From Scyliorhinus canicula (taxonomy: Eukaryota): a stretch of 64,000 bases of DNA. The DNA lies in assembly GCF_902713615.1 (NCBI RefSeq), contig NC_052161.1, positions 86,840,236 to 86,904,235 on the forward strand, read 5' to 3'. The position numbers and the translations under genes are program-made. This document shows, piece after piece, positions 40,521 through 64,000 of this stretch. The notes beneath the pieces are model-generated. The model ran no database searches. It had not been told where the DNA came from and worked only from the letters and a program-made list of their open reading frames with translations. The first letter of the stretch is position 1. Every line of letters starts with the position of its first letter.

Positions 40521-42115
40521 ATATGGGAAAAGAACCAAGTCATTCGGCTATCCGCCTTGAATCTGTATATTAATCCATGTGAGTTTAAGCTTAAGTGGGA
40601 TAAGGTGCTGTCAGGGACTGCGGAGTTCCCAAATCTTATCTCCCAGAATTCTGACATCAAAAACTGCTTTGTTACTGATACTCAGGCCTTCGTGTGAATA
40701 TTTTCACCCTTAACATTTAGTGTGAGTCTGGAAGGATTTGCTGAGCTGGACGCCGCTCGAGCCGGTGGACAAGGCGAGTAGTCAAACCTTTGACCGCCTA
40801 AAATTAGAATCACTCGGCAAGGCGGACAGACGGTGAGGTAACATCCAATAAATCTAGTATCAAGGCCAAATGAGTAAAAAAGTCAGTTTAAATTTTTTTT
40901 TTGGTTTTTGAAGAGCAAAATCCTCTGAAAAAAAACAATGATCAAAGATGGGTGTGATTTCTGTGGAACAGAGAAAAATGGTGAGATACACAGAAGTAAA
41001 GATAAGACAAATAAAGTTAGAAGCACAAATGACATAAATTAAACCTTCACACCATTTGGAAGACAGGCTGGTTTGAAGGAATTGAGCTCTAACTCCTTTA
41101 AGCATAGCAATAAAGCGGGTAAAGATACTGCAGTACAGATTGTGAAAACTAGCAAAAGACATCACAAAACTGCCAACAATTACGGCTAATGGCTGACCCG
41201 GAATGTCTCAAGGAGGAAAAAAAAATCAAATTAAGTGAAGTCCAAAAGATCAGAAAGGGGCTAAAACACTCAATTAGTTTTGTTCAGGAATATCTGAGGA
41301 TGACTAATTCCCCCCTCCCAAAACAAAAAAATTGGGAAGAAAATCAATACAAGATTACGGTTAGAAATTAAACAATGGATACATGTCGAGAATAACTTCA
41401 GATTGTTTCAAGCCGTCCAGATAAATTCGGCAGTAATTCAACTCATTTGAAATAAAAGAAAAATAAACATCCAGTAATGTCTCTTTCCAAAAACCGGTTA
41501 AATAACGAACATTGAAAATTGAAAGAAAGGATGGATAATGTCTGAGGTCACATGGCAGATGGAGATGGCATCATGCCAAGTTCTCCACCACTTTCGATTC
41601 TGTACAAAAGTTTAGCCATTTGAGGAAGCAGGTCATCTGCACAAAGACATATACACCTCTAAGAATAGCGAATGCCTCTAAATTAATCAGTGGAAATTGA
41701 CTTAAATGGAATGACACAGATAAAGTTTTCGAAGGAGAATGAAAAATTTTGTTTAGTATTTTAATTGAGCTCCATTTTAGAGAAAGAGTGAGAGGGTTAG
41801 AGAGAGAGAGCCAGAGACTGAGAGAGGGACTGATAGAGACAGCGAAAGTTGAGAGAGCGAAAGAGAGCGAGTTAGGGAAAGACAGAGACGGGGAGAGGTA
41901 GTTAGATAAAGAGAAAGAGTGGCAAGAGTTCCAGAGACAGGCAGAGTTACGTAGAGAGATAGACAGAGAGAGAGTTTTAGGCATCTAAACTTTGTTCTGA
42001 ACTATTCACTGTCTCTGTATTCATGTTTCATTTTCAGACTTTGACTTCAGACTTTGACTTTTAAAAGTTTTGTTACGAGCTGTGATTATTTGAAAGCTTC
42101 AAATTGTCTACGTAT

Positions 42116-42342
42116 GGGCAGCACGGTGGCACAGTGGTTATCCCTGCAACCTCACGGCGTCGAGGTCCCAGGTTCGAATCCCAGCTCTGGGTCACTGTCC
42201 ATGTGGAGTTTGCACATTCTCCCCGTCTTTGCGTGGGTTTCACCCCCACAACCCAAAGATGTGCAGGGTAGGTGGATTGGCCACGTTAAATTGCCCCTTA
42301 ATTGGAAAAAATGAACTGGGTGCTCTAAATTTAAAAAAAAAA
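42116..42342 (+). mobile_element. HE1-like V-SINE with poly-A tail and 15-bp TSD
   Basis: Flanked by AAATTGTCTACGTAT (42101-42115) and AAATTGTCTACGCAT (42341-42355). Confidence 0.9.
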
Positions 42343-43112
42343 ATTGTCTACGCATTGCCTTTAAAGATTACAGTTTGAGTATAGTTAACAATTTTTTATT
42401 TTCAAAAGCTATCATTGGCATTGCCAGGGTAATTTTGATACACAAGGAATTTTAATCAGGGTGCAAAATCACGTATGTAAGAATAAGAAAATATTAGTTT
42501 TATGGTGTTCAGTGGAAGTTAGGATAATTGAAATACATATGACAAGTTGCAATACATATGACAAATATGAACAAGCCGGTGTTTCATTAGTTCAGGGTTA
42601 AAACTTCCCTGACACAAATAATCATCAGTAGGGTGAAACTTACCTGTCCAACAACGCAGATGTTTTAATGATGAGATTGCAGAATTACTTATTAACAACA
42701 GATGGGTAAATGAAATATGTCCATAATCATGCTCGTCTGGGAAAGAACCACGCAAAATTGGTTCACTCAGAGTTTCAATAACATATTGTGTTTGCTGAAA
42801 GACTTGATAACGAGAATTTGGCAGCACTCCAACTCTTACTTCCAGTTCATTTGAGTGAAAAATATAAAAAAACGTTTAGAGATGCGAATGGCATCATTCC
42901 AATTGATCCACCCACTATACGCCCCTTTTTGTCTCTGCAAGAAAATTAACCCTTTCAACAAGCTCTTGTGTGTAATCCAGAAGATGTCTTGACACTCCCA
43001 TGCTGGGTTTGCCTGTGAGCTCTGGCCCTTTTAATTCTGATAAAGTAATGAACAGTCCACACGGCTGAAGATGCATTTTAATTGGAACTTACCGATCTTA
43101 AATTTAGAATTT

Positions 43113-45120
43113 TCACCCCCTTAACGACCCAGACCTGACCATGTTCACAGATGGAAGTGCTTTTATCGGTGAAAGGGGGGAGCGGTTATCAGGATATGCT
43201 ATAGTCAACCAGGGTGGGGAGACAGTAGAATCAGCAGCATTTGAAACTCCATTCTCGGCCCAGCAAGTAGAATTGTTCGCACTAATACGCGCATGCGCAC
43301 TAGGAGCAGGCAAAAAAGTAAATATTTATACAGACTCCAGATATGCCTTTGGAGTCGTACATGATTTTGGACAATTATGGAAGAACAGAGGATTTTTAAC
43401 ATCCGCTGGCACCCCAATTTCCCATCAGCAGCTAGCAACCCAGTTACTCCAAGCTCTTATGCTCCTAGAAAAGGTAGCAGTGATAAAGTGTACTGCCCAT
43501 ACGAAAGGAAAAACTCCAGTAGATGAAGGAAATAGGCATGCCAACCACCAAGCAAAAGAAGCCTCAAAGTCAAAAGCCATGGTAGTGCCCAAAATGATGA
43601 GCCAGACTAAAAACTCAAAGAACAAGTCTCCCTCTGAAAAACCTATGCCGACCATTACTGACGTAATCCAGCTACAGGAGGACGCTCCTGCTAGCGATAA
43701 AAAGTTATGGGAAGAATTGGGATGTACATATGATAAAGAAAGTAAGCTGTGGGTCACCCCAGCAGGGCAGACATGTATGCCCGATGCTTTGGCAGCCTGG
43801 GTGGCCAAATGTGTACACTTTGCAATTCACTGTGGTGCTCGCGCTACAGGTGATATATTGTTAAAAACCTGGTGGCATCCTAGGTTGCAGGAGATAGCCC
43901 AACGAATTAGCAGTCGCTGCTTGATATGTCAGCAGTATAACCCTGGGAAGGCTGTCCCCTGCGAGCAGGGGAAAACACCATTGCCCCTTTGAGACCCTGC
44001 AACTGGACTACATTGAGTTGGAAAGATGTCAGTGTTACAAGCATGTATTAGTAATTGTTGATGTGTTTAGTAAATGGATAGAGTCCTATCCTACTGTAGA
44101 TAATAAGGCTTCAACTGTAGTAAAAGTTCTTATGCGTGAAATTGTACCAAGATTTGGAATTCCCTATCGTTGAAGCTCTGATAATGGACCTCACTTTGTG
44201 GGACAGATCAATAAAGAATTCTGCACTCAACTGGGAATTAAACAGCAGTTACACTGCGCCTACAGACCCCAGGCAGCTGGGATAGTGGAAAGAGCTAACC
44301 AGACTCTGAAAACCAAACTTGCTAAGCTACAAGCAGAGACCGGAGCCACTTGGCTCAAACTTTTACCTGTTGCACTTTTCCAGATCAGAACCACCCCTGC
44401 GGGAAAGACTCGATTGAGCCCCGCTGAAATCTTGTACGGAAGACCCCTTCGCACCCCCTGGGACTGTCATACATCCCGAGACATTCAGTTCCACCACATG
44501 ACTACAGAAATGGCTAATTACATAATACAGTAGCCTTGACTAAAGTATTAAAGAGTCTCCACTTACAAGTACGTGCCGCACAAGAGGAAGTGCCACCCTT
44601 AGCTAGCTCCGACATTGTGCAACCGGGAGATCATGTGAAGATCCGCAATTGGATGTGGAAGGGGTTGGAACCACGTTGGGAAGGACCGTTCCAAGTTAGA
44701 ACATAGAACATAGAACATAGAACAGCACAGAACAGGCCCTTCGGCCCTCGATGTTGTGCCGAGCAATGATCACCCTACTTAAACCCACGTAACCCGTATA
44801 CCCGTAACCAAACAATCCCCCCATTAACCTTACACTACGGGCAATTTAGTATGGCCAATCCACCTAACCCGCACATCTTTGGACTGTGGGAGGAAACCGG
44901 AGCACCCGGAGGAAACCCACGCACACACGGGGAGGACGTGCAGACTCCACACAGACAGTGACCCAGCCGGGAATCGAACCTGGGACCCTGGAGCTGTGAA
45001 GCATTGATGCTAACCACCATGCTACCGTGAGGCCCTTACCACCCCCTAACCACCCCCACGGCAGTCAAAGTTGAAGGACGAAATGCGTGGATTCACACCC
45101 ACCACTGTAAGCTAGTGAAG
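43113..45120 (+). pseudogene. pol: ERV-A RNase H and integrase remnant
   Basis: FTDGS..AQQVELFAL..YTDSRYAFG; HFAIHCG..CLIC; SDNGPHF; VERANQTLK. Frameshifts and stops. Confidence 0.9.
44697..45035 (-). mobile_element. HE1-like V-SINE with CR1-type tail, inserted in the integrase 3' end
   Basis: Near-identical in structure to 1047-1399, with a (TAGAACA)n tail on the plus strand. Confidence 0.9.
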
Positions 45121-45195
45121 TTTTCGTGGTTATTAACTCTTGTTTTAAGTTTTAGGTACATACGACCTTACTCGGAATAGGAGCAGGACCCCACG

Positions 45196-46194
45196 ATGAA
45201 GCTGCTCTTTTTACTAGTGATCCTCGCCAGCGCCATCCAGTTTACATTTACTAGCGACCGGCAATGTAGACCCGGCGGACGAATTCTGCACCTTTGTCGT
45301 GAGGACACCTTTAGCTGTGCCAACAGCACCACAGATGAGACCTTGCGGACGGCGACCCCGGTAGATACCTGCACCACCATCATTCATCAAGACGAGCAGA
45401 AGCCTCGGTTCCTGACTACCCGCGGATCCCTGACCTGCGATCGCTACGCTTGCCGGTGGGACTACCAGTGTACGAGGAAAGGCAAGCCACGAGTTCCTGA
45501 ATGTAAGACTATCCATACTCACCCGCCTACCAGGAGGAAGCGGGCAACGCACCATGTGACTGCAAATTCATTCCTGTTTATGTCTTATACTTATGCAAAG
45601 AAATTAAATGTCTCCTCTTGTTGGGAATGTACGCATGTTCCCAGCCATGCCCATGGGGGTATTCCCTTGGTCCCTCTTTCCTATTTGATTGAGGAGGTTG
45701 CAGAATGGGCTCTGCGACATAATCGCACCGATCCTGATAATAATACCGCGGAAGGACTCAGTGAGCTCAACGTAGAGCTAGTAGCTGTTCGGACGGTCGC
45801 CTTACAGAACCGCATGGTTCTAGACTACCTCCTCGCCAGCGAGGGAGGTACGTGTGCTGTAGTGGGTTCTGAGTGCTGTACTTATATCCCTGATAGCTCG
45901 GAGAACATTACTCACCTAGTGCACCACATTAGGGATGGGGTAAAGAGACTCCGCCAGTCCTCCTCAGACGACTGGTGGGGATGGCTGTGGTCTAGTTCCT
46001 GGACCACCTATCTGTTTCATGGATTTATTATCTTTATCATTATTTGCCTTTTGCTATGTATCAACGTAACCTGTGTTAAATGCTTTTGTAATCGTTTAGG
46101 TGCCTCTGTGATGCCACAGATGCTGCAGCGGCTTCCCCAGTTAGACAAGCAGAACTTAGTAGATGCCGGAAATGGTATTAGGACATTGGACTAA
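45196..46194 (+). CDS. env: ERV-A env ORF with in-frame internal deletion (332 aa)
   Basis: Signal peptide, RRKR, CWEC, immunosuppressive-domain-like LQNRMVLDYLL, CX6CC and TM helix. Upstream acceptor TTTTAG at about 45155. Confidence 0.75.
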   Translation: MKLLFLLVILASAIQFTFTSDRQCRPGGRILHLCREDTFSCANSTTDETLRTATPVDTCTTIIHQDEQKPRFLTTRGSLTCDRYACRWDYQCTRKGKPRVPECKTIHTHPPTRRKRATHHVTANSFLFMSYTYAKKLNVSSCWECTHVPSHAHGGIPLVPLSYLIEEVAEWALRHNRTDPDNNTAEGLSELNVELVAVRTVALQNRMVLDYLLASEGGTCAVVGSECCTYIPDSSENITHLVHHIRDGVKRLRQSSSDDWWGWLWSSSWTTYLFHGFIIFIIICLLLCINVTCVKCFCNRLGASVMPQMLQRLPQLDKQNLVDAGNGIRTLD

Positions 46195-46384
46195 AGGATG
46201 ATTTCCCGGAGGAATTCCTCAGACTCTCAAGGATATGGGTGGCTGTGTGATCATGGAATGATCAAAGGGGGGAATGAGAATGTGAAGCAAGGGTTAATAG
46301 CTAGAACAAGCCAGAATGAATGGGACACATTAGTGGAAAATTACAAATAAGGGAGTTGTTATTAAATTCGTGAGCCGACTCACG

Positions 46385-48040
46385 AAGGGTCTCTCTCCTG
46401 AAGGGTCACAGTTAATCTCTCTCTCCTGAAGAGACACAGTTAATCTCTCTCTCTCCTGAAGGGTAACAGTTAATCTCTCTCTCTCTCCTGACGAGACACA
46501 GTTAATCTCTCTCTCCTGAAGAGACACAGTTAATCTCTCTCTCCTGAAGGGACACAGTTAATCTCTCTCTCCTGAAGAGACACGGTTAATCTCTCTCTCT
46601 TGAAGAGACACAGTTAATCTCTCTCTTCTGAAGAGACACAGTTAATCTCTCTCTTCTGAAGGGACACAGTTAATCTCTCTCTCCTGAAGAGACACAGTTA
46701 ATCTCTCTCTTCTGAAGGGACACAGTTAATCTCTCTCTCCTGAAGAGACACAGTTAATCTCTCTCTTCTGAAGAGACACAGTTAATCTCTCTCTTCTGAA
46801 GGGACACAGTTAATCTCTCTCTCCTAAAGAGACACAGTTAATCTCTCTCTTCTGAAGGGACACAGTTAATCTCTCTCTCCTGAAGAGACACAGTTAATCT
46901 CTCTCTCCTGAAGAGACACAGTTAATCTCTCTCTCCTGAAGAGACACAGTTAATCTCTCTCTCCTGAAGGGACACAGATAATCTCTCTCTCCTGAAGGGT
47001 CACAGTTAATCTCTCTCTCTCCTGAAGATACACAGTTAATCTCTCTCTCTCTTGAAGGGACACAGTTAATCTCTCTCTTTCCTGAAGATACACAGTTAAT
47101 CTCTCTCTTTCCTGAAGGGTCACAGTTAATCTCTCTCTCTCCTGAAGATACACAGTTAATCTCTCTCTCTCCTGAAGGGACACAGTTGATCTCTCTCTCT
47201 TGAAGGGACACAGTTAATCTCTCTCTTTCCTGAAGAGACACAGTTAATCTCTCTCTTTCCTGAAGAGACACAGTTAATCTCTCTCTTTCCTGAAGAGACA
47301 CAGTTAATCTCTCTCTTTCCTGAAGAGACACAGTTAATCTCTCTCTTTCCTGAAGAGACACAGTTAATCTCTCTCTCTCCTGAAGAGACACAGTTAATCT
47401 CTCTCTCCTGAAGAGACAGTTAATCTCTCTCTCTCCTGAAGGGACACAGTTAATCTCTCTCTCCTGAAGGGACACAGTTAATCTCTCTCTCCTGAAGAGA
47501 CACAGTTAATCTCTCTCTCTTGAAGGGACACAGTTAATCTCTCTCTCTTTCCTGAAGAGACACAGTTAATCTCTCTCTCCTGAAGGGACACAGTTAATCT
47601 CTCTCTCTCCTGAAGGGACACAGTTAATCTCTCTCTCCTGAAGAGACACAGTTAATCTCTCTCTCTCCTGAAGGGACACAGTTAATCTCTCTCTCTCCTG
47701 AAGGGACACAGTTAATCTCTCTCTCTCCTGAAGAGACAGTTAATCTCTCTCTCTCTTGAAGAGACACAGTTAATCTCTCTCTCTCCTGAAGGGACACAGT
47801 TTATCTCTCTCTCTCCTGAAGGGACACAGTTAATCTCTCTCTCCTGAAGAGACAGTTAATCTCTCTCTCTCCTGAAGGGACACAGTTAATCTCTCTCTCC
47901 TGAAGAGACAGTTAATCTCTCTCTCTCCTGAAGGGACACAGTTAATCTCTCTGTCTCTCCTGAAGAGACACAGTTAATCTCTCTCTCTCCTGAAGAGACA
48001 CAGTTAATCTCTCTCTCTCCTGAAGAGACACAGTTAATCT
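46385..48040. repeat. ~28-32-bp satellite, right arm
   Basis: Same unit and orientation as 33270-35230. Confidence 0.95.
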
Positions 48041-51000
48041 TGCATACGTGCAGTGCAGTCAGCCTAATTTGAAGGTGGTTTGTGGAGGGGCTGTTGTCAA
48101 GTGACAGTTAAACCCGAAACACTTCGTTAGTGTTTCCCACCCTATCTCCTCCTCTAACCAAAAAAAAAACCACGGTTGTTGGGAAGCGGGAGCAGGGGCC
48201 TGTCGTGAAGGTGAGTGAGTGCCTTTAAATTTGCTTACCTTTCAGCGGCAGCAGGGTTTGAGGGAATATCAGGTAAGCTCTTCCTTTCTTTTTCTTTTTC
48301 TTGTTTTTTTTTAAATCTAGAGGTGATGTCAGGGAAGGCAGTACAATGCTCCTCCTGCAGAATGTTTGAGGTGAGGGACCTCACCGTAGCATGGTGGTTA
48401 GCATCAATGCTTCACAGCTCCAGGGTCCCAGGTTCGATTCCCGGCTGGGTCACTGTCTGTGTGGAGTCTGCACGTCCTCCCCGTGTGTGCGTGGGTTTCC
48501 TCCGGGTGCTCCGGTTTCCTCCCACAGTCCAAAGATGTGCGGGTTAGGTGAATTGGCCATACTAAATTGCCCGTAGTGTAAGGTTAATGGGGGGATTGTT
48601 GGGTTACGGGTATGTGGGTTTAAGTGGGGTTATCATTGCTCGGCACAACATCGAGGGCCGAAGGGCCTGTTCTGTGCTGTACTGTTCTATGTTCTATGTC
48701 AGTGTCCCTGCTGATTTCATCTGTGGGAAGTGCACCCAACTCCAGCTCCTCAAAAACCGTGTTAGGGAGCTTGAGCTGGATGAACTTCGGATCATTCGGG
48801 AGGCAGAGGGGGTCATAGATAGGAGCTTCAGGGAAGTAGTTACACCAAAGGCTGGAGATAGATGGGTAACTGTAAGAGGGACTGGGAAGAAGCAGTCAGT
48901 GCAGGGACCCCCTGCGGTCGTTCCCCTGAGTAACAAGTATACCGTTTTGGATACTTGTGGGGGGGGGGACTTACCAGGGGTAAGCCATGGGGTACGGGCC
49001 TCTGGCACGGAGTCTGTCCCTGTTGCTCAGAAGGGAAGGGGGGAAAGGAGTAGAACATTAGTAATTGGGGACTCAATAGTCAGGGGCACAGATAGGAGAT
49101 TTTGTGGGAGCGAGAGAGACTCACGTTTGGTATGTTGCCTCCCAGGTGCAAGGGTACGTGATGTCTCGGATCGTGTTTTCCGGGTCCTTAAGGGGGAGGG
49201 GGAGCAGCCCCAAGTCGTAGTCCACATTGGCACTAACGACATAGGTAGGAAAGGGGACAAGGATGTCAGGCAGGCCTTTAGGGACCTTGATGGAAGCTCA
49301 GAGCGAGAACAAACAGAGTTGTTATCTCTGGGTTGTTGCCCGTGCCACGTGATAGTGAGATGAGGAATAGGGAGAGAGAGCAATTAAACACGTGGCTACA
49401 GGGATGGTGCAGGCGGGAGGGATTCAGATTTCTGGATAACTGGGGCTCTTTCTGGGGAAGGTGGGACCTCTATAGACAGGATGGTCTACATCTGAACCTG
49501 AGGGGCACCAATATCCTGGGGGGGGAGATTTGTTAGTGCTCTTTGGGGGGGTTTAAACTAATTCAGCAGGGGCATGGGAACCTGGATTGTAGTTTTGGGG
49601 TACGGGAGATTGAGAGTATGGAGGTCAGGAGCACAGATTTGACTTCGCAGGAGGGTGCCAGTGTTCAGGTAGGTGGTTTGAAGTGTGTCTACTTCAATGC
49701 CAGGAGTATACGAAATAAGGTAGGGGAACTGGCAGCATGGGTTGGTACCTGGGACTTTGATGTTGTGGCCATTTCAGAGACATGGATAGAGCAGGGACAG
49801 GAATGGTTGTTGCAGGTTCCAGGGTTTAGGTGTTTTAGTAAGCTCAGAGAAGGGGGCAAAAGAGGGGGAGGTGTGGCGCTGCTAGTCAAGGACAGTATTA
49901 CGGTGGCGGAAAGGATGCTAGATGGGGACTCTTCTTCCAAGGTAGTATGGGCTGAGGTTAGAAACAGGAAAGGAGAGGTCACCCTGTTGGGAGTTTTAAG
50001 GATGTTCTAAGGATGTAGAGGAAAGGATAGCGAAGATGATTCTGGAAAAGAGCGAAAGTAACAGGGTAGTTGTTATGGGAGACTTTAACTTTCCAAATAT
50101 TGACTGGAAAAGATATAGTTCGAGTACATTAGATGGGTCGTTCTTTGTACAATGTGTGCAGGAGGGTTTCCTGACACAATATGTTGACAGGCCAACAAGA
50201 GGCGAGGCCACATTGGATTTGGTTTTGGGTAATGAACCAGGCCAGGTGTTAGATCTGGAGGTAGGTGAGCACTTTGGAAACAGTGACCACAATTCGGTGA
50301 CCTTTACGTTAGTGATGGAATTGGATAAGTATACCCCGCAGGGCAAGAGTTATAGCTGGGGGAAGGGCAATTATGATGCCATTAGACATGACTTAGGATG
50401 TGTAGGTTGGAGAAGTAGGCTGCAAGGGTTGGGCACACTGGATATGTGGAGCTTGTTCAAGGAACAGCTATTGCATGTTCTTGATAAGTACGTACCAGTC
50501 AGGCAGGGAGGAAGGGGTCGAGCGAGGGAACCGTGGTTTACCAAAGAAGTGGAATCTCTTGTTAAGAGGAAGAAGGAGGCCTATGTGAAGATGAGGCGTG
50601 AAGTTTCAGTTGGGGCGCTTGATAGTTACAAGGAAGCGAGGAAGGATCTAAAGAGAGAGCTAAGACGAGCAAGGAGGGGACATGAGAAGTCTTTGGCAGG
50701 TAGGATCAAGGAAAACCCAAAAGCTTTCTATAGGTATGTCAGGAATAAAAGAATGACTAGGGTAAGAGCAGGGCCAGTCAAGGACAGTGGTGGGAAGTTG
50801 TGTGTGGAGGCTGAGGAGATAAGCGAGATACTAAATGAATACTTTTCGTCAGTATTCACTCAGGAAAAAGATAATATTATGGAGGAGAATGCTGAGACCC
50901 AGGCTATTAGAATAGATGGCATTGAGGTGCGTAGGGAAGAGGTGTTGGCAATTCTGGACAAGGTGAAAATAGATAAGTCCCCGGGGCCTGATGGGATTTA

Positions 51001-52349
51001 TCCTAGGATTCTCTGGGAAGCCAGGGAAGAGATTGCTGAGCCTTTGGCTTTGATTTTTAGGTCATCATTGGCTACAGGAATAGTGCCAGAGGACTGGAGG
51101 ATAGCAAATGTGGTCCCTTTGTTCAAGAAGGGGAGTAGAGATAACCCCGGTAACTATAGGCCGGTGAGCCTAACGTCTGTGGTGGGTAAAGTCTTGGAGA
51201 GGATTATAAAAGATACGATTTATAATCATCTAGATAGGAATAATATGATTAGGGAAAGTCAGCATGGTTTTGTGAAGGGTAGGTCATGCCTCACAAACCT
51301 TATCGAGTTCTTTGAGAAGGTGACTGAACAGGTAGACAAGGGTAGAGCAGTTGATGTGGTGTATATGGATTTCAGTAAAGCGTTTGATAAGGTTCCCCAC
51401 GGTCGGCTATTGCAGAAAATACGGAGGCTGGGGATTGAGGGTGATTTAGAGATGTGGATCAGAAATTGGCTAGTTGAAAGAAGACAGAAAGTGGTAGTTG
51501 ATGGAAAATGTTCAGAATGGAGTTCAGTTACGAGTGGCGTACCACAAGGATCTGTTCTGGGGCCGTTGCTGTTTGTCATTTTTATAAATGACCTAGAGGA
51601 GGGCGCAGAAGGATGGGTGAGTAAATTTGCAGACGACACTAAAGTCGGTGGAGTTGTAGACAGTGCGGAAGGATGTTGCAGGTTACAGAGGGACATAGAT
51701 AAGCTGCAGAGCTGGGCTGAGAGGTGGCAAATGGAGTTTAATGTGGAGAAGTGTGAGGTGATTCACTTTGGAAAGAATAACAGGAATGCGGAATATTTGG
51801 CTAATGGTAAAATTCTTGGTAGTGTGGATGAGCAGAGGGATCTCGGTGTCCATGTACATAGATCCCTGAAAGTTGCCACCCAGGTTGATAGGGTTGTGAA
51901 GAAGGCCTATGGTGTGTTGGCCTTTATTGGTAGAGGGATTGAGTTCCGGAGCCATGAGGTCATGTTGCAGCTGTGCAAAACTCTGGTACGGCCGCATTTG
52001 GAGTATTGCGTACAGTTCTGGTCGCCTCATTATAGGAAGGACGTGGAAGCTTTGGAACGTGTGCAGAGGAGATTTACCAGGATGTTGCCTGGTATGGAGG
52101 GAAAATCTTATGAGGAAAGGCTGATGCACTTGAGGTTGTTTTCGTTAGAGAGAAGAAGGTTAAGAGGTGACTTAATAGAGGCATACAAAATGATCAGAGG
52201 GTTAGATAGGGTGGACAATGCGAGCCTTCTCCCGCGGATGGAGGTGGCCAGCACGAGGGGACATAGCCTTAAATTGAGGGGTAATAGATATAGGACAGAG
52301 GTCAGAGGTAGGTTTTTTACGCAAAGAGTGGTGAGGCCGTGGAATGCCC
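48041..52349 (+). mobile_element. Near full-length CR1 LINE (5'UTR, ORF1 from 48326, ORF2), interrupted by a SINE and by ERV-B
   Basis: ORF1 has CSSC..CGKC, a coiled region and a GDS esterase. ORF2 has APE plus an intact RT ORF (50036 onward). It stops at ..RPWNA where the ERV-B LTR begins. Confidence 0.92.
48375..48699 (+). mobile_element. HE1-like V-SINE inserted in CR1 ORF1
   Basis: Head, V-domain and a (TTCTATG)n tail split ORF1 between FEVRD and VSVPADFICGKC. Confidence 0.9.
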
Positions 52350-53016
52350 TGTGGAAGTGGATTTCATTTTGTTATAACTTTGCTGCTATGTTTAATATCG
52401 AAGTTCCGAAAAGCTCTGTGAAAGAGATGTCAAAAGGTCAGGGGACTGGAATGAAAGGAAGCATGACTTTACTATAATCAAGGTTCTGAAAAGCATCTGT
52501 GAAAGCAGAGATGTCAAAAGGTCAAGGGAATGGAATGTAAGGAAGCGTGACTTTACTGCAGAGACAGCGAAACTAAGCTTGTTTGACCAACTGAAACAAT
52601 AAGCATTGAAATGTAAAGGCAACTGGCTCTGGAGTAAGTGAAGGGAGAAGATGAGGAAGTTGGGCCAGATGGCCATGGGATAAGAGAAACCTTTGTAACA
52701 GCATTAATAGTGACCTGTGTTAATGATTATGTCAAAAATAACCTCCCGACCTCGAAGAAGAATAATTCCATATAAGTACATGTTCTGGATCCTTGCCAAA
52801 TCATTGGTGTATCTAGGAATTTAAGGGGACCACCCCTAAGCTGTGAAATGTATAAAGATACAGTCCTTATTCTGGGACTTTGGCACTTCTCGAAGGTGGT
52901 TACCCGACTGCTTAGAGATTTGTCCCGGCCGTGAATAAACGAATATTCGTTACTGACGTGTTCGAGTGTTTTACTTCTGGACTGACGAACGGTTATGTGA
53001 AAGCGCAATTCACATT

Positions 53017-53034
53017 TGGTGGCAGCGGTGGGAT
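53017..53034 (+). promoter_or_regulatory. Primer-binding site, tRNA-Leu
   Basis: TGGTGGCAGCGGTGGGAT, 2 nt after the LTR end. Confidence 0.9.
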
Positions 53035-53475
53035 CTCCAGAGGTGTCTGCGCTACCCAACCGGCGTAATCGACTGAGCTCGTTCAAAGTAGAGGACGAAT
53101 TTGGCCCCCAACGTGAGTAAAATTTCTTTTCCACCTTGGTATTCGCCTACTACTAGTTTGATCGTTGCTCAGCCTTGCCGTTGGTTTGTCGAGAAGCCTC
53201 TGCGAGATCCAGGTCAGTCCAGCGTACCCGTTTTAAAGAGGGTAAGTGAGTGACGCCTGCGGTTATCGTCACTAGGGGCGGTCTGGGACTGCCGCCATAA
53301 TTCCGGGCTGTGTTCTCTAGAATTTACGGGCGGGGTTCTCGGGGCCGCTAGGAGACGACTCCGGGCTGTGGGCTCCGGACGGGACTGCCGCCGTAATTCC
53401 GGGCTGTGTTCTCTAGAATTTTCGGGCAGTGTTCTCAGGACTACTAGGAAACGAGAGTGGAATTAGAATTCCACC

Positions 53476-55466
53476 ATGGGTAATACAGTAGATACTTGTG
53501 ATGACCCGGGCAGTGCGCTCCAGACTCTCTGTGAACAATACCCCAAACACTCAAAGCAACTCCGACAATTGTCTGGGGCCCTCCATAAAAACCTAGGCAA
53601 GGATAAATGGCCTCTGGGGGGACCTAAAGACTTGGGTCCTGTCCTAGAGGCCCAACAGGTGATCTGGAAAACCAATCGCGGTTCCACCTCAAAGAAATTA
53701 ATTGCTTTATGGAGGGAATACTGTCAGTCAGTGAAAGATGCATCTACACTGGCTAGCTGGCAGGCTAATGCCTCGAAATTGGGCATTGGCCTCACCAAAG
53801 GGGGAATTGTTAAAACAGTAGAGGTCTTAAAAAGGAATGTAAAGAATGAAAGAATGCTACTCCTACCCCGGCGCCGGTCAGCAATGCGAAGCAAGGTTGG
53901 GAGGACGGGGACGATGGGGATGAGGAACATCTGTTCCATTGTGGGGGACGTCGGAAGCCTCCACAGCCACCACAGCCGCCGCCTCTACCACCCCTCCCTA
54001 ATGCACCGATCCAATTTATTATACCCCTCCCAAGTCAGAATCCACCACCTTATGCACCACCGCCGCCCCAACCAGCATATCAACCCCCGGCCATGAGTAC
54101 AAGGTCGAGAACAAGGGGAGGAGGGGGACCATTCACGCAATTGGTCCAGTTGAAGGAACAAGTGGGAGAACAATTAGACAGTCTTTTCCAAAATCTGGAT
54201 AAGGACGAGGATTTCCCTCCTCCTCTTCCACCAGCCCTCGACCATCCCTTACCCCCACCACGACAGATGCCAATGCGCCAGGTGCCAAATCCTACCTATG
54301 ACCCTGTTACTGCCGTGGGCAACCCTAATGCTGAACGTACCATGAATATTTATGTCCCGTGGAAACCCAATGAGATTATGTCCATACTAGCTGGAATACC
54401 AAATCGAAAAGAGTCCCCTGCTGCCTTTGTTGACCAACTCCAATGTACAATTCGTGTATATGAGGCCGAAGCACGGGACTTATGGGCCTTGGTCCAGCAG
54501 GTCTTGCGCCCAGAAGAACACGTTCGCTTCTGCAATGTCTTACAACAGCAGGATCCTACTATTACCCTCCCTGTGTCTTTAGTGGCCCTTAACGTGCTCC
54601 ACCAGGCGGACCGGCAACGCCAAGATGCAATTTTTGCTGCATTAAACACTACCCTTCAAAAGCCTGTAGATATTACTAAAATGCTTGAGACCAAACCCCG
54701 CAAGGATGAGGAAGCCGACACCTTTTTAGAGCGTTTTAATGAGTCCTAGCGTAATCAGGCCGGAGACACTAATTACCGTGCTGGCAACAACAGCCCACAG
54801 TATTGTGCCATGGTCTTGAGCTGCCTGCCCATCTCCTTATCAGATGCGATTAAGACTAACAATATGGATTGGTCCGATAATAGTCCCACCCAAATGGCAC
54901 GAGCTGTGAGGTACTACTGGAAAAACGGCTCACCTGAGACTACGTCTAAAGCAACCCCTAAAATTAAAACTGTGTATGTCCTTAGAAAAGACGTCCAGGA
55001 GGTACCAATACCCTCTCGGGCGCCTGATAACACGGGCTGCCAGGTGGAACCTCAATGCCGCGCCCCTGGTTGGGTGACCCCACAAGGTGGAGGATACACC
55101 TCCCATCCAAACGGGCCCCAAGCACCGCTCTATGGCCCTCCGTATGCCCCCCCGGGAGCAGCGTCGGCCTATGCACCACCCCCACCTTATTCTTATGCCA
55201 CACCCTACCAACACCCCTCCCATCCCCCACCACCCTATTATCCACCGATGCCGACCCAGGTAGCACTTACCCCCACACAACCACCACAACATGCAAGGCT
55301 CTGTTATAGTTGTGGTCAGCCAGGACATTATGCTCGTAACTGTTACACGCACCCTAACCGCGGCAGAGGGGGTCGTGGAGGGGGAGGACGGGGCAGAGGA
55401 GCGCCCGCAGTGGCTGCTCCAGTCACTACTCCGTTCACTCAGAATAACCCCTTCCAACAATACTGA
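53476..55466 (+). pseudogene. gag: ERV-B gag (frameshift ~53830, internal stops)
   Basis: N-terminal MG, PPPY late-domain motifs, capsid (YVPWKPNEI), CYSCGQPGHYARNC knuckle. Ends in TGA, in frame with pro-pol. Confidence 0.9.
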
Positions 55467-58400
55467 TTGTCGATGTTGCCTTCTCGTTTAACCTCCCCTG
55501 ACTCTGAGCCTGTTCTCTCTTTAACCATTTATGGTCACTCCTATCCGTTTCTCATAGACACGGGGGCTACCATGTCTTCCGTACAGTCTCACCTCAACCT
55601 TCCCCTCTCATAAGCGACCCAACAACTATCTGGTTTCCAGGGACAGGTAGCTAGTTATCCCATTTCTTTCCCTGTGCCCGTTTCCTTCCAGGGCTACACC
55701 CTACAGCACCGATTTATTGTTACAACCGGACTAGATTGTAATCTACTGGCCCGAGACCTTCTCTGTGCCTTTGGAATACATCTCGAATGTGGGGATAACG
55801 GGATCACTGTCCATTCGCCCAGCATACCACGCCAGTTGATCACTCATGTGCACCCGCAATGGTGGGCACTTCATTTGATGCCTGAGCGGTTGTTCCACGT
55901 CACGCTGGCCTACGATTCGACCGGAGCCGACGAGGGCCTGGTCGACTCTTACAGCCCTCACCTTGAACAGGAATTCTCAGTCACCCTTTTTGCTTCTGTG
56001 AGCAGGCCCCAAGGGACTGCGGATGCGGCGCAAGTGCCTACCTGGCTATGGCACCAAGATGGGTACACCGCCCCGCATGTCACCCGCCATGTCCACTACC
56101 CCCACCATGCCAAGGATCTAGGGCCAATGGTCCGACAGGCGTTGGACCAGTCTGACCCCTCTCTTCTGGAACCCCAACTCCTCCCTGGCGGTCTCACCAT
56201 TACATACATGTCACAACCAGCTACATCCCAGTCCATTCTTTTACACCATCGCGCCCGGACCGATGCGACTGTTTCTCCCCACGTATGGGCTGCGGATAAG
56301 TTTGATGTTGGTCTCGTCCCTACCCAGCCTATCACTATTCCTCTCCTCCCCGATGTTCAGCTCCCCTCGATCCGACAATATCCCATTAAGGCCCAAGCTC
56401 GCCACTCCATCGATGCACTCATAGCTAAACTTCTCGACCAGGGTATCCTGGTTCCTTGTCAGTCTCCGTGCAATACCCCCATCCTAGCGGTGCCCAAACC
56501 TGGGAAACCAGATCAGTACCGCCTCGTCCAGGACTTACGTGCTATCAATTCTATTGTCCAGCCTCTCCACGCCCTTGTTCCTAACCCTGCGCATATTCTA
56601 GCCCAGGTTCCTGCAGACGCACTATTCTTCTCCCTTGTAGACCTCCAGCATGCCTTTTTCGCTCTGCCACTCGATCCATCATGCCAATATCTTTTTGCAT
56701 TCACTTATAATGGCCAACAGTATACTTGGATACGTTTGCCTCAAGGTTTCATTCACTCTCCCACTCTTTTCTCCCGCTGTCTCCAACACCAACTACAATT
56801 CCTCTCCTTCTTCCGAGGCTCCACTCTTGTTCAGTACGTCGACGATCTCTTGATCGCTAACCCTACTGAGGGGGGATGTCGGGCCGACACTCAACTTTTA
56901 CTCAATTTTCTGGCTTCCCTTGGTTACATTGTCTCTCCCTCGAAAGTTATGATTGCTCAACCTACTGTTAAGTTCCTAGGTGTTAGGATATCTGCCACCT
57001 CTCGTTCCTTAGATCCAGACCGGATCCGCCCTATCTGCGATTTCCCACCCCCAACGACGGCCAAGCAGCTCCGTCAGTGGCTGGGCATGGTCAATTATTG
57101 CCGTCAGTGGATCCCGAATATTACTCTGGATTCCCGCCTCCTTACCCCCTACACCAATGAACCCGGTACTTTTTCCTTTTCCCCGGAAGCCGCACTGGCC
57201 TTTAACCGCCTCAAGGAGGCACTCCTCCAGGCCCCTGCCCTTGGTCGACCCTTATATGATCGCCCTTTTCAGCTCTATTGCACGGTCCTTGCCGACTGCG
57301 CCACAGCTGTCCTGACCCAACGCCACGGCGACCGCTGTCGCCCGGTTGCATACTACTCCTCTAAACTCGATCCGGTGGCCCTTGGCTATCCTATCTGTAC
57401 CCAAATTCTTGCAGCTATCTACAACAGCCTGCAATCGGCTGCTAATATTACCCTCCAACAAGATATCACTGTCTATAGTTCCCATTCCGTTACAGCTCTT
57501 TTGGGACAGCTACAGACTCAGCATCTCACGATGGCTCGTCAGAATAGATATGAGATTGCTCTCCTTAATAACCCGAAGGTCCAGTTTGCCCACTGCACCA
57601 CTATCAACCCTGCTAACTTTTTGACGTATCCTCCCACGGACATGCTCGACCGAACTCATGACTGTCTGCAACTGTTGCGAGAAGTCTCCTCGGTCCGAGA
57701 CGACCTCTCCGATATACCCCTCCCAAGTGCAGATTGTTCCTTTTTCACCGATGGAAGTTCTTCCATCGGCGAAAGGGGGGATAGACAATCTGGCTATGCA
57801 ATCATCGATCAAGACGGTGACGTAGTAGAAGCAGCAGCATTTGAAGTTCCCTTTTCTGCCCAACAAGCAGAATTATTTGCGTTAATACGAGCATGCATAT
57901 TGGCAAAGGGAAGGAAGGTTAATATTTATACGGATTCCCGATACGCCTTCGGGGTAGTACATGATTTCGGGCAATTATGGAAAAACAGAGGATTTCTAAC
58001 CTCTGCTGGTACACCCATCTCACACCAGCAGTTAGTAACACAGTTATTGCAGGCCCTTATGCTCCCAGACAAGATAGCGGTGGTAAAATGCGCAGCGCAT
58101 ACAAAAGGCACGGAACTGGTGGAAACGGGCAACAGGAGAGCGGACGAGAAGGCAAAAGAAATTTCTAAATCTGGCAAACTAATGGTGCCTAGAATGATGA
58201 GGCAGACTAAAACCCCCCCGGAAAAGTCTCCCTCTGAAAAACCTATGCCAACCATTGCTGACATAATCCAAATGCAGGAGGACGCTCCTGCAACTGCTGT
58301 AAATATGTGGAAAAACTTAGGATGTATGATAATGAAAATAAGCTGTGGGTCACCCCGGTAGGACAAACATGTATGACCGATGCATTAGCAGCCTGGGTGA

Positions 58401-59383
58401 CCGAATGTGTACACTTTGCAACTCACTGTGGAGCTCGTGCCACAGGGGACATATTGTTAAAAAGCTGGTGGCACCCACGACTGCAGGAGATGGCCCAACA
58501 AATTAGCAGTCGGTGCCTAATCTGTCAACAGCACAACCCCGGTAAGGCCGTCCCCTGTGATCTTGGCACAACCCCCTTACCTGAGGGTCCATTTGAGACC
58601 CTACAAATGGATTACATTGAGTTGGAAAGATGTCAATGCTATAAATATGTGTTAGTCATTGTGGACACTTTTAGCAAATGGATCGAGGCCTACCCGACTA
58701 CGGATAACAAGGCCTCGACAGTAGTTAAGGTGTTAATGCGAGAAATTGTTCCGCGATTTGGAATTCCAGCCCGGCTGAGCTCTGACAATGGTCCACACTT
58801 CATAGGTCAAATCAATAAGGAATTCTGTGCTCTGCTTGGAATAAAGCAACAGTTTCATTGTGCCTACAGACCACAAGCCGCTGGAGTGGTGGAAAGGGCT
58901 AATCAGACTCTAAAGACTAAACTCGCTAAACTACAAGCAGACACTGGGGCCACTTGGCTCAAACTCCTGCCTTTAGCACTCTTCCAGCTACGTGCCACCC
59001 CTGCAGGAAAAACCCGCCTAAGCCCAGCGGAAATACTATATGGCAGACCCTTTCGAACGCCTTGGGACAGCAGTGTTCCACGGAATGTTCAATTCCATTA
59101 CATGACTACTGAGATGACTAATTATATATTAACACTAACTAGAATTTTGAAAGGATTACATTCCCGGGTCCGTGCCACCCAGGAAGAAGTCCCATCCATT
59201 ACTCATGACATCTCCATCAACCCTGGGGATTATGTCCTAATTCGAAATTGGACACGTAAAGGTTTGGAACCGCGATGGGATGGTCCCCTAAAGGTTCTAC
59301 TCACTACCCCCACTGCAGTAAAAGTGGAGGGACGAAACGCATGGGTACATATGCACCATTGTAAGTTAATTAAGTATCCATGA
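55467..59383 (+). pseudogene. pol: ERV-B pro-pol (PR, 2H-like insert, RT, tether, RNase H, IN); stop ~55610 and frameshift ~58325
   Basis: LIDTGA, LPQGFIHSP, YVDDLL, FTDGS, HFATH..CLIC, QMDY..SDNG..VERAN. Confidence 0.92.
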
Positions 59384-59427
59384 TGTTCTAAACTTTTCCT
59401 TTAAGTCTTAGGAACACGAGTACCAGG

Positions 59428-61088
59428 ATGAGGCCCCTCTTCGCTGTCACGATGCTCGCTACCCTGCTCTCTCTCGCTGCATCCGAAGGAAGAAGATGCC
59501 CGTATGGAAGCCGACGTCCACCCCTGTGCCGAGAAGGAACCCCACGATGTGGAACAACGACAGATCTCCGATGGATCACCACCCCTATCAACACCTGCCC
59601 GACCACCGTTCATCCCGACGACCAGAAGCCCCGATTCCTGACTACGTACATGGTTCTGATCTACGATCGCCGCACATGCCGGTGGAACTACCGGTGCATC
59701 GATAAGAACAGGGTACAAATTTCTGTACCAAGGACTACTCACCCCTACTCGCCTTCCAGAAGGAAGCGGGCAACGCACCATGTAACGGCAAATTCATTTC
59801 TGTTTATGTCCTATGTCTATGCTAAGAAAATGGATGTCTCCTCTTGCTGGGTATGTACACATGTCCCGACCCATGCCCATGGAGGCGTTCCCTTGATATC
59901 TGTTCCTTTCTCAATCGAACAGACGGCTGAATGGGTTATATTCCAGAACAGGACAGTAACTAGTCACTCTGCCTTACCAACCAGGGCCTCCAGGTCCTCC
60001 TCTGTAAACCACAGGGAAGCAGCCCAAGAATGGCTGAGTGCCGGCTACCCTTTGCGGGATTTTTTTGGTTGGCGACAGCCATCTTACTCAGCAGATCACA
60101 CACCCCGTTCTTTAATATCCAGAACCCCAGACCGGAACGGTCTGCTTACTCCGGGAAGTAAGAACTCCTGGAACAAATGTGTTAGGAACCAGTTCATGTA
60201 GGTACACTTTTAGTCTTACTGACTGGAAAGGCCACGCCATCATCAATAACATTGTTAACCACACAGGGGGCCCTGATTGGACTCAAATATGGACCTCCTC
60301 GATGGTAACTAGCCTCACCTCCTATAATGGCACCTACTTCATTTGTGGCCATAGGCTTACCCTGGCTCCCCACTGACTGGGCAGGGTCGTGCTACTTGGG
60401 TTTCGTTGTTCCGGGTACTACACACTATGCCCAGCTCGAACATCATCCCCACTTTCGAGCCCAGAGGTCAATACCACCTTGGGAGGTAGTGACTTCCCTC
60501 TTATGGCCCCAAATAGGCGCCATCTGGTCCCTCCAGAAGTACGCGCTCCTCCGCGACCTATTGGAACAGGTTGCAAATGACACCGCGGAAGGACTTAGTG
60601 AACTCAGTGCAGAGTTGGTAGCCATACGAACGGTAGCCCTACAGAATCGTATGGCCCTGGATTACTTATTGGCCAAAGAAGGGGGGACCTGTGCTATCAT
60701 AGGGACCGAATGTTGCACTTACATTCCAGACAGTTCAGAGAATATCACGCGTCTGGTAACCCATATCAGAGATGGAGTACAGCGCTTGCGACTCGCCGGT
60801 CAGGCTGACTGGTGGAACTGGATGTGGACCAATCCTTGGGCCACTTACCTGTTCCAGGGGCTCATTATCTTCGTTACCATCTGTTTGTTGCTCTGTATCA
60901 TAGCTACTGGTGTGAAATGTCTATGCAACCGTTTGGGTGCTGCTGCATTACCACAGATGCTTCAGAGATCCGCCCTAGACGAAAAGGAAAAACTGGTTCC
61001 ACCTACCCCTGACCTATATGAGGAAGTGGCATCCTGCCGGAGCCTAGTAGAGGAGGAGTACCTCCGCCTCGCTCTCATTTCCATTTAA
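59428..61088 (+). pseudogene. env: ERV-B gamma-type env (two frameshifts at ~60125 and ~60355)
   Basis: Acceptor TTAAGTCTTAG at 59411, signal peptide, RRKR, CWVC, RAQR/SIPP cleavage, LQNRMALDYLL, CAIIGTECC and TM. Confidence 0.9.
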
Positions 61089-61913
61089 AGTATCCTGAGT
61101 GTTATATGATCAAGGAATGATCAAAGGGGGGAATGTAGAAGTGGATTTCATTTGGAACTTAACTGATAGGGTTAATATAACAGTTCTGAAAAGCTCTGTG
61201 AAAGAGATGTCAACAGGTCAAGGGATGAAATAAAGGGAGTGTGTTCTGACCGTATCTGTAAAAGCAAAGATGTCAGAAGGTTATGGGATGGAATATAGGG
61301 AGTGTGGCATTGGTACTAATTAATGTTCTGACCGTATCTGTAAAAGCAAAGATGTCAGAAGGTTATGGGATGGAATATAGGGAGTGTGGCATTGGTACTA
61401 ATTAATGTTCTGACCGAATCTGCAAAAGCAGAGAGGTCAAAAAGGCAAAGAATGGAATGAATGGGAACCGTTACTTTATTGCAGAGATAACATAATTGAG
61501 CTCGTTTGACCAGTTGGAACAAATAAACATTGAAATGTTAAAGGAAGGGCCTTGGAATGAGATAAGCCAGATGGCCATGGGATACAAAAACCTTTGTATT
61601 AATATTAATAGTGACTTGTGCTAATGATTATGTCAAAAATAACCTCCCGACCTCGAAGAATAATTCCATATATGTACATGTTCTGGATCCTTGCCAAATC
61701 ATAGGTGTATCTAGGAATTTAAAGGGACCACCTCTAAGCTGTGATTGTATAAAGAGACAGTCCATATTTTGGACTTTGGCACTTCTCGAAGGTGGTTACC
61801 CGACTGCTTAGAGATTTGTCCCGGCCGTAAATAAACGAATATTCGTTACTGACGTGTTCGAGTGTTTTACTTCTGGACTGACGATCAGATACGTGAAAGC
61901 GCAATTCACACAC

Positions 61914-62413: not shown

Positions 62414-64000
62414 CCCCTCACGTATGTAGCCTCGCGACCCTTAAGGTCGCCCCCTCCCTCGCTCTTCGCGAACCTCACCTCCGACTGTAAACCCGTCGCC
62501 ACCAGGAGCAGGCGGTATAGTGCCCACAATAGGACTTTTTTCAAGTCCGAGGTCCAGCGGTTCTTGAGGGAAGGGACCATCGAGGCCAGTAATAGCCCCT
62601 GGAGAGCCCGAGTGGTGGTCATCAGGACTGGGGAAAAGAACCAGATGGTTGTAGACTATAGCCAGACCATGAATCGGTACACGCACCTCGATGTGTACCC
62701 CCTTCTCCGCATAGCAAACATGGTTAATCAGATTGCACACTACCGGGTTTTCTCTACGGTAGATCTGCATTCCGCATACCATTACGATGCCGCCATGCTA
62801 AAGCTGAATGGACAATTCGTTAAACCAGTCAACAGAGTATTCGCCCGACATCTGCTGGCCACCAGACAACAGCTCCCCGGTGAGTCATTAGACCAATTTT
62901 ACCAGGCCTTCGCAATCCTGGGGAGGAACTGCTCCTGCCTCCCAGTTTCAGCTACGGGGCACATGGAAACTGCCGATCAGAGACGCTTACGTGGCTGGGA
63001 TGCAGTCCCCCGCTATCCGCCAGCGGATGCTGGAGAAAGACGACCTCAGCTTAACTGAGGCACGGACTCTCTCCACCTCCCTGGAGGTCGCCGATCTAAA
63101 CGCCCACGCCTATGTCCCCAGCCGCGCTGCAGCACCCTGGGCCTCCTGGCACGCTTCCCCACCGCCATCCGCCGCTCCCGACCTCCCTCAGGCCTGCGCC
63201 GCGGGACGCCCCGACAAGTCCACGGGGCCCCGCTGCTGCTTTTGTGGGTTCGCGAAACACCCTCGCCTGTGCTGCCCAGCCCGCTCCGCCCTCTGTAAGA
63301 GCTGCGGGAAGAAGGGCCACTTCTCCACTGTCTGCCAGGCCAAAACGGTCGCTGCGGTTCCACGCAGCGACCAGGGATCCCCCCCTCCGGGTCCTTGCTG
63401 GGCCCCTCCTGGACGCCGCGCAACACTCTCCCCCCCCCCCCCCCCGCCCTGGGGCCCCTGCGCCCGACCTGCGCGCCTCTCTCTCCCCCCCGCCCCCGGG
63501 CCCCTGCGCCCGGCCCTGCACGTCTCTCTCTCTCCTCCGGGCCCTCCCGGTCCCCTCCTGGACGCCGCGCAACTTTCCCCTCCCCGCCCCTGGGCCCCCG
63601 CGCCTGGCCTGCCCGCCTCTCTCTCTCCTCCGGGGCCCCTCCAGTGCACTGCGCTACTCTCCGCTCGCCGCCCCCGGGCCCCCGCGCCTGGCCTGTGCGC
63701 CTCTCTGCCCCCGCTCCCAGCCGCTCCGATCAGCCCGCCGGCACCGCTAACCCCGCCCCCAGCTACCACGAGGGCCCCACGGGCGCCGCCATCTTGGGGC
63801 GCCGACTCCACATGTGGGCCCTGGGCGCCGCCATCTTGGGGCCCCGACTTCACGTGAGGGTCCTGGGCGCCGCCATCTTGGGGCCCCGACTCCACGTGCG
63901 GGTCCTGGGCGCCGCCATCTTGGGGCCCCGACTCTCAGTGCGGATCCTGGGCACCACCTTCCGGGACTGGCACGCAAGGTTCTTCCAGCATCTACTCGGA
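62414..64000 (+). mobile_element. Rearranged Gypsy fragments (RT N-terminus joined to mid-Gag), same family as 5641-10847
   Basis: RT ..FSTVDLHSAYH runs into Gag YDAAMLKLNGQFVKPVNRVFARH at ~62783. Two CCHC knuckles and 42-bp repeats follow. Confidence 0.85.

Follow-up and report, generated by a model that had tools for sequence, protein, structure and literature searches.

Phosphoesterases of the 2H class, which carry two HxT motifs, include vertebrate CNPase, AKAP7/18 and several viral enzymes, and the closest described systems to the domain reported here are found in fish retroviruses. 2H domains have been listed in walleye dermal sarcoma virus (WDSV), citing Mazumder 2002 (PMC9503650), and teleost epsilon-like endogenous retroviruses (ERVs) are reported to encode CNPase or macro domains occasionally, citing Basta 2009 (PMC4977317). 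We analyzed a stretch of 64 000 nucleotides from Scyliorhinus canicula (RefSeq assembly GCF_902713615.1, contig NC_052161.1, forward-strand positions 86,840,236 to 86,904,235; hereafter the window), in which an initial annotation, made from the sequence alone, had proposed a 2H phosphoesterase-like domain inserted between the protease (PR) and reverse transcriptase (RT) of a shark ERV and had mentioned that such domains were noted computationally in fish retroviruses, as the two articles bear out. The shark domain is a real, conserved member of this computationally known class, predicted to be well folded, and by its structural model it is CNPase-like rather than ns2-like.

Our literature search, which did not reach most subscription papers or supplements, brought up neither an assay of any retroviral 2H domain nor a description of one in sharks. 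The domain is unmentioned in PMC6001957 and PMC8672886, and no retroviruses appear in the main text of a 2025 preprint (10.1101/2025.08.21.671373), the supplementary tables of which list 2H fusions to proteases and other domains and may bear on the subject.

An extra domain between protease and reverse transcriptase

The element is an epsilon-like provirus at 52350-61910 of the window; it and all of its parts lie on the plus strand. In its Pol, 180 aa separate the NLLARD motif of PR from the RT start, compared with mostly 48-72 aa in related Pol proteins whose PR adjoins RT, and this comparison of distances leaves ∼110-125 extra residues, close to the ∼125 first estimated. The extra domain is in frame between PR and RT. 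Both HxT motifs are present in the open pol frame as annotated, with His codons at 55896 (LFHVTLAY) and 56076 (APHVTRHV...AKDLGPMV) that are 60 codons apart; the first catalytic motif (HVT) together with a Tyr at His+5 occupies 55896-55913 and the second (HVT) 56076-56084. The extent given for the domain, 55851-56228, needs a small correction to about 55839-56255. The description of the motifs as lying in a hydrophobic context also needs amending, since the shark lineages have Arg as residue 4 of the second motif, where skates and teleosts mostly have Leu. The nearest named homologues come from catsharks, a sevengill shark and skates, in agreement with the assignment to a shark ERV.

The motif pair alone is weak evidence, because 660 of 20 000 shuffles of the domain gave two H-hydrophobic-T/S motifs 55-90 residues apart. 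That the observation is real therefore follows from conservation and fold, and on these the presence of an extra domain between PR and RT is confirmed.

Conservation and selection

A search of the host genome with the domain returned 746 candidates, from which 150 were scored and 110 of these 150 copies were fetched; the fetched copies fall in four groups of 64, 10, 1 and 35, and their selection by similarity to the query favours intact ones. Nearly the whole domain was spanned at 92-100% identity by 67 of the 150 scored copies, the others being distant subfamilies or fragments, and 19 of the 150 were harboured by open frames of 1306 aa. The motif conservation proposed as a check was found in nearly all of the 110 copies, with the first and the second His each kept in 108, the first Thr in 105 and the second in 107, along with the Tyr at the fifth residue after the first His (His1+5) in 106. 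Across sequences of only ∼20-30% identity, both His, both Thr/Ser, the Tyr at His1+5 and a Gly 15 residues past the second His (His2+15) were the best-kept positions.

The second check, on selection, gave ratios of nonsynonymous to synonymous polymorphism (pN/pS) in the domain of 0.15, 0.13 and 0.18 in three subfamilies for shared variants, defined as those in at least three copies; the corresponding values were 0.09, 0.06 and 0.11 in RT and 0.15, 0.09 and 0.14 in PR, and singleton variants in the domain gave 1.31, 0.44 and 0.85. Of 17 pairs, 10 were usable and gave a dN/dS of 0.12-0.48 for the domain, dS being saturated in the other 7. Purifying selection thus acted on the domain during the time when the virus was replicating.

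RNA reads over the domain were sparse, with a mean depth of about 2, 0 and 0.1 in three RNA runs, and most were 95-99% alike to the window and thus derived from sibling copies. RNA reads and contigs also skipped 57819-57977 and 59939-60723 (157 and 783 bases), without GT-AG ends, and such reads and contigs probably represent transcribed deletion variants of the ERV family.

Predicted fold and comparison with CNPase

AlphaFold was run on a 16-row alignment of the domain, and the best model reached a predicted local distance difference test (pLDDT) score of 90.5 and a predicted template modelling (pTM) score of 0.81, the five models having pLDDT values of 90.5, 88.4, 77.7, 46.6 and 40.3. The model has the two-lobed 2H fold that the initial annotation expected and is closest to vertebrate CNPase. 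Among the 40 PDB matches listed by Foldseek, 39 were CNPase or goldfish RICH and one was a fungal RNA kinase, with the best E-value, 2.6e-6, to mouse CNPase. In a VIA-align comparison with 48 161 chains, mouse CNPase scored Z 13.1 (140 residues aligned, model residues 3-142, root-mean-square deviation 4.1), whereas every other 2H enzyme scored 6.3 or less: the cyclic phosphodiesterase (CPDase) drCPDase 6.3, rotavirus VP3 5.9, a plant CPDase for ADP-ribose-1'',2''-cyclic phosphate (Appr>p) 5.7, the phosphodiesterase (PDE) PDE-9 5.5, Acb1 5.3, penguinpox PDE 4.8, mouse hepatitis virus (MHV) ns2 4.7 and AKAP18 4.3, the range given for VP3, ns2 and AKAP18 being 4.2-5.9.

Sequence searches led to no known 2H protein directly. 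A Pfam scan of the domain gave no significant match, and Pfam CNPase matched 2 of 48 aligned homologues with a best E-value of 2.7e-4, below the cut-off. A PDB sequence search with the domain returned only chance ferredoxin matches (E at least 0.23) and two profiles gave nothing there, and the atlas leads for the domain, tRNA_lig_CPD and 2H-SAK clusters, scored below the recognition bar. When the family profile was compared with the host's own CNPase, both HxT motifs aligned with a score of 6.3, which 1 of 2000 shuffles reached.

Both motif His residues open predicted strands (E23-29 and E83-88) and align to the CNPase motifs. Helix alpha-7, described as specific to CNPase, positions the nucleophilic water there and obstructs the side of the cleft taken by 2'-5' oligoadenylate (2-5A) (PMC5283653, PMC4643303). 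The model has a helix at residues 98-107 that starts at the Gly at His2+15, and this Gly was found in 43 of 44 fish Pol proteins, in 108 of the 110 shark copies and, equally spaced from the second His, in host CNPase; the pattern used to cut the fish set (44-45 proteins) itself demanded the second motif, which means that the count of the second His in this set is not independent. The helix, with the AKDLG turn before it (56109-56150, including Lys at His2+12), is likely to be the equivalent of alpha-7 and of the beta5-alpha7 loop of CNPase. At the position of the base-stacking Phe235 of CNPase (His1+5), Tyr or Phe was found in 41 of the 44 fish Pol proteins. These alpha-7 and pocket-residue equivalences rest on sequence offsets and the profile alignment, not on superposed coordinates.

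The shark domain thus shares with the group of vertebrate CNPase and the yeast Trl1 CPDase both HxT motifs, the aromatic residue at His1+5 and a predicted alpha-7 with its Gly. It differs from CNPase in length (∼140 versus 216 aa, at 15% identity), in having no N-terminal polynucleotide kinase (PNK)-like domain but PR and RT on its flanks and a fusion to RT, and in carrying Lys and Ala at the positions of Val321 and Arg307. With the residues at these two positions different and the PNK-like domain absent, it is, as modelled, CNPase-like and yet not CNPase proper. With the viral 2',5'-PDEs (MHV ns2, NS4b and the C-terminal domain of rotavirus VP3) and AKAP7/18 it has in common the 2H fold, the motifs and, for the viral ones, the nature of a viral accessory enzyme, but those proteins are without alpha-7. 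The cGAMP (cyclic GMP-AMP) PDEs (phage Acb1, PDE-9 and penguinpox PDE) are also viral 2H enzymes, and the shark host has STING, but their structural scores lie no higher than the Z of 4.8-5.5 given above.

Polyprotein processing and the probable link to reverse transcriptase

The TGA terminator of gag (55464-55466) is in frame with pol, at the same offset in 81 of the 91 copies with a readable junction, and implies expression of gag-pol by opal readthrough; amber, not opal, is the usual gag-pol stop of gamma- and epsilonretroviruses. Protease sites of WDSV bear Gln at P2 (PMC3185560), and a Gln-Leu-Ile at 55833-55841 is a predicted P2-Gln site between PR and the 2H domain, its Gln being kept in 109 of 110 copies. 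A Gln-hydrophobic-hydrophobic pattern was found at the PR junction of 27 of 41 fish Pol proteins (46 were given, of which 1 was dropped without a motif match and 4 without a PR end), at the RT junction of 2 of 41 and in four control windows of 2-10 of 41. Since sharks have a Gln-type site ahead of the domain but none behind it, the domain is probably the N-terminal part of RT, and in the shark lineage it likely stays as such after processing.

Some observations tell against this link. The Gln pattern was picked after the data had been viewed and the sequences counted are related; moreover, when another 25 carriers were inspected, 6 of them, mainly of one teleost clade, had Gln-Met before RT, which could free the domain, and 3 had the Gln-hydrophobic-hydrophobic pattern there. 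Judged from such junction sequences, release of the domain from RT is possible in other lineages. The trees of the 2H domain and RT agreed for 38 sequences (7 were dropped as short), with a patristic rho of 0.84 and no supported conflict; all nine strong splits of the 2H tree were present in the RT tree, and 7 of 12 the other way.

Distribution in fish retroviruses

A word-index search with the single domain found no match, and homologues were reached by profiles. Searching 1.84 billion representatives with a profile yielded 79 matches, and the named clusters among those looked up (29 proteins) were all elasmobranch or teleost; a further profile search gave 38 matches, of which all named ones were teleosts. 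When 120 Pol proteins were collected by their RT only, 28 had the domain (3 skate, 1 shark, 14 teleost, 1 hagfish and 9 unnamed), 49 were classed as having PR adjoining RT (one of them a parsing artefact) and 43 were not classifiable. Fourteen of the 15 testable teleost Pol proteins carried the domain, the exception being an internally deleted relative, and none of 52 named tetrapod or gammaretroviral Pol proteins (24 properly testable) had it. An RT tree of 74 rows, made quickly and rooted at the midpoint, does not prove the ancestral state; in it, carriers were spread across deep fish branches and non-carriers were mostly tetrapod groups, with six changes, two of them forced by strong branches. 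Ancestral presence of the domain with later losses fits this tree.

Like the shark domain, the teleost CNPase-like domains belong to fish retroviral polyproteins, and in many teleost ERVs they are placed between PR and RT. The shark form is ∼50 aa shorter (180 aa from PR to RT, against about 225-250), has Arg after the second HxT and is found in cartilaginous fish, and it differs from the walleye-virus forms in lying in Pol, not Env. The top three viral fold matches were Q2VF30 (an unnamed entry) and the Env proteins of walleye epidermal hyperplasia virus 1 (WEHV1) and WDSV, with E-values of 1.7e-7 to 8.4e-7; we take Q2VF30 to be the polyprotein of salmon swim bladder sarcoma virus. The walleye-virus matches are the BFVD entries Q9WHI8 and A4GTG3, both Env, and WEHV1 Pol has no such domain, so the idea that all fish retroviruses fuse the domain to RT was dropped. 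WDSV Env has a cytoplasmic loop of 170 aa (aa 875-1044; PMC3185748). We infer that the CNPase-like match in walleye-virus Env sits in this loop, and a relocation of the domain from Pol to Env in these viruses is probable.

Function of the domain

We give an even chance to the reading that the domain is a virion-borne, CNPase-type 2',3'-cyclic phosphodiesterase, its packaging being suggested by its place in Pol. The enzyme would be made through gag-pol readthrough and packaged, PR would cut it from itself at the P2-Gln site, and no cut would part it from RT. By analogy with CNPase, one His would activate a water at the N-terminus of alpha-7 and the other would protonate the 3'-O while the Tyr at His1+5 stacks the substrate base, and opening of a 2',3'-cyclic phosphate would yield a 2'-phosphate and a free 3'-OH. 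Speculative substrates are the cyclic-phosphate ends that host RNases leave on the primer tRNA or, within the core, on genomic RNA that has been nicked, or alternatively free 2',3'-cyclic nucleoside monophosphates (2',3'-cNMPs), and removal of such ends or nucleotides might shield reverse transcription from an RNase-type host defence. CNPase is able to stand in for the yeast tRNA-ligase CPDase on RNA ends and tRNA halves (PMC5434554). The second option of the initial annotation, cyclic-phosphate ends or cyclic nucleotides, is better than its lead idea, discussed below.

Several points weigh against a CNPase-type enzyme attached to RT. At the Val321 position (His2+12), Lys or Arg was found in all 110 copies and in 41 of 44 fish Pol proteins, and the Arg307 position (His2-2) was mostly Ala, with Arg in none of the 44, so that specificity may have shifted. 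Gammaretroviruses replicate without the domain. One teleost clade (P0139, P0140 and P0144) keeps the domain with the second HxT lost or altered. Given that the domain is missing from WEHV1 Pol and matched in walleye-virus Env, not every lineage needs it to be covalently joined to RT. The specificity of viral 2H enzymes, moreover, differs even between close relatives (10.1101/2025.08.21.671373).

The lost motif of that teleost clade would suit a catalytically irrelevant domain that binds RNA or Gag or acts as a spacer and is kept for structure, and host CNPase is known to bind HIV Gag and to block assembly (cited in PMC5434554); given that the catalytic His and Thr/Ser residues, the Tyr and the Gly are the best-kept positions of the whole family, we assign this explanation a low probability. 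Less probable still, by a little, is an enzyme with a different cyclic phosphate as its substrate, for example Appr>p, acting alongside macro domains in a conflict over NAD and ADP-ribose. Fish ERVs with CNPase or macro domains (PMC4977317), the placing of viral 2H domains in the NAD/ADP-ribose network (PMC9503650) and the plant Appr>p CPDase among the structural matches speak for it, but that match is far weaker than the one to CNPase, and Pfam found no macro domain in eight scanned frames of the shark element. We hold least by the lead idea of the initial annotation, a 2',5'-phosphodiesterase that destroys 2-5A and so blocks the OAS-RNase L pathway in the manner of ns2/NS4b and VP3. The 2H fold with both motifs would suit it, host OAS-family genes were found at three places, and the OAS-RNase L pair of a cartilaginous fish, the ghost shark, is functional; ray-finned fish have lost the pathway (PMC10400998), yet nearly all testable teleost Pol proteins have the domain, mostly with both motifs. 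The structural scores, far higher for CNPase than for VP3, ns2 and AKAP18, and the alpha-7-like helix, which in CNPase blocks the side used by 2-5A, disfavour it as well. As for RNase L in the host, its two KEN-domain loci may instead encode IRE1, judging by their motifs.

A virion-borne nuclease that destroys a cyclic dinucleotide, 2'3'-cGAMP or some other, and damps STING signalling is more plausible than these three, although we still consider it unlikely. Its target would be made when cGAS senses reverse-transcribed DNA or would be packaged into particles. The cGAS-STING pathway is retained across fish and virions can carry cGAMP; the shark host has STING, the placements in Pol and, probably, in the cytoplasmic loop of Env would both put the enzyme in the virion or the cytosol, and the basic residue in place of Val321 could accommodate one more phosphate. 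Cleavage of cGAMP is known for 2H enzymes of poxviruses, iridoviruses and phages (10.1101/2025.08.21.671373), but the structural model lies far from Acb1, PDE-9 and penguinpox PDE, the predicted alpha-7 helix would narrow the cleft and Pol is produced in small amounts. Tetrapods, moreover, have STING too, yet the domain was absent from all of the named tetrapod or gammaretroviral Pol proteins.

The provirus and its surroundings

The provirus comprises long terminal repeats (LTRs), a primer-binding site (PBS), gag, PR, RT, RNase H, integrase (IN) and a gamma-type env. The 5' LTR (TG...CA) at 52350-53014 is inserted in the 3' end of a long interspersed nuclear element (LINE), where reads part from the window at 52350, and is followed by a PBS at 53017-53034 complementary to tRNA-Leu(AAG); an extended PBS pattern had 47 matches in the genome, and all three that were scanned are tRNA-Leu(AAG) genes. 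The tRNA-Leu 3' pattern forms a tandem cluster of ∼29 matches with ∼1.4 kb spacing at G000:C17:109231502-109293147. The gag gene (53476-55466) begins with Met-Gly, encodes one CCHC zinc knuckle and is disrupted in the window copy, where a frameshift lies near 53850 and a stop codon at 54747, and its capsid likely starts with the Pro at 54270, after Gln-Met. PR (FLIDTGA...NLLARD) is encoded at 55467-55838, with a stop codon at 55611-55613 that is present in 1 of 110 copies, the window copy (7 copies being unreadable at that column); the open pol frame is 55614-58358. RT, tether and RNase H (56280-58358; Pfam RVT_1, RT_RNaseH and RNase_H) are in frame with the 2H domain, a frameshift lies ahead of the integrase with its murine leukaemia virus-type C-terminal domain (58262-59383), and env (59392-61088; gamma-type transmembrane subunit (TM), TLV_coat) is split over two frames. 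A polypurine tract (61123-61133) and the 3' LTR, followed by an assembly gap, complete the provirus (61123-61910). The copy is thus defective, with frameshifts or stops in gag, PR, pol and env. It has the features of an epsilon-like class I ERV, namely a single CCHC in the nucleocapsid, an in-frame gag-pol stop, P2-Gln sites and gamma-type IN and TM, and its RT, related to the WEHV and gamma groups, is 44% identical to WEHV1 Pol.

The two LTRs (52350-53014 and 61134-61910) are ∼96% alike in R/U5 blocks and 82% alike over 606 bases, and their U3 parts have many indels and different tandem units, yet between them the provirus is 98% like its sibling copies. The mismatch may have arisen when LTR variants recombined, or from an assembly join beside the N gap. 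No target-site duplication is readable. The window also holds, at 40290-46300, another ERV of this group that is more decayed and has 56-86% protein identity in matrix, RNase H, IN and env, with other sequence in place of the region from capsid through PR and 2H to RT. Two LINE copies with endonuclease and RT frames (49537-52477 and 37262-40138) each lie directly upstream of an ERV, and it is the 3' end of one of them that the provirus interrupts. A tandem array of 28-30-base units occupies 46300-48000, and past the N gap, at 62414-64000, a Gypsy-like fragment (an RT piece and a gag zinc-knuckle region, identified by eye) was found with GC-rich repeats.

Implications for retroviral evolution

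The domain has been known as a computational note since 2002. What is new is a narrower view of its probable role, with a CNPase-type pocket, a probable place as part of RT and a function other than that of a 2-5A enzyme, together with selection shown in a shark ERV family that was amplified recently and the extension of the class to sharks, skates and hagfish. With 140 residues and a confident model, it is also cheap to test. If RNA-end healing or cGAMP degradation is true, the domain would be an unrecognised retroviral enzyme. A broader scenario, which we put forward as doubtful, is that the RT of the ancestral class I (epsilon/gamma) retroviruses had an N-terminal, CNPase-derived core enzyme that served anti-immune or end-healing purposes, acting on cyclic-phosphate RNA ends or, via its Lys-modified pocket, on cGAMP, and that persisted in hagfish, sharks and teleosts, was repeatedly lost toward tetrapods and moved to the cytoplasmic loop of Env in the walleye viruses. 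If so, this ancestral enzyme would have to be counted as the sixth of the retroviruses, after PR, RT, RNase H, IN and dUTPase. RNA-end healing or cGAMP degradation would also bear on the purpose of CNPase-type chemistry, obscure even for the host enzyme, and on why class I retroviruses retain the domain in fish and not in tetrapods.

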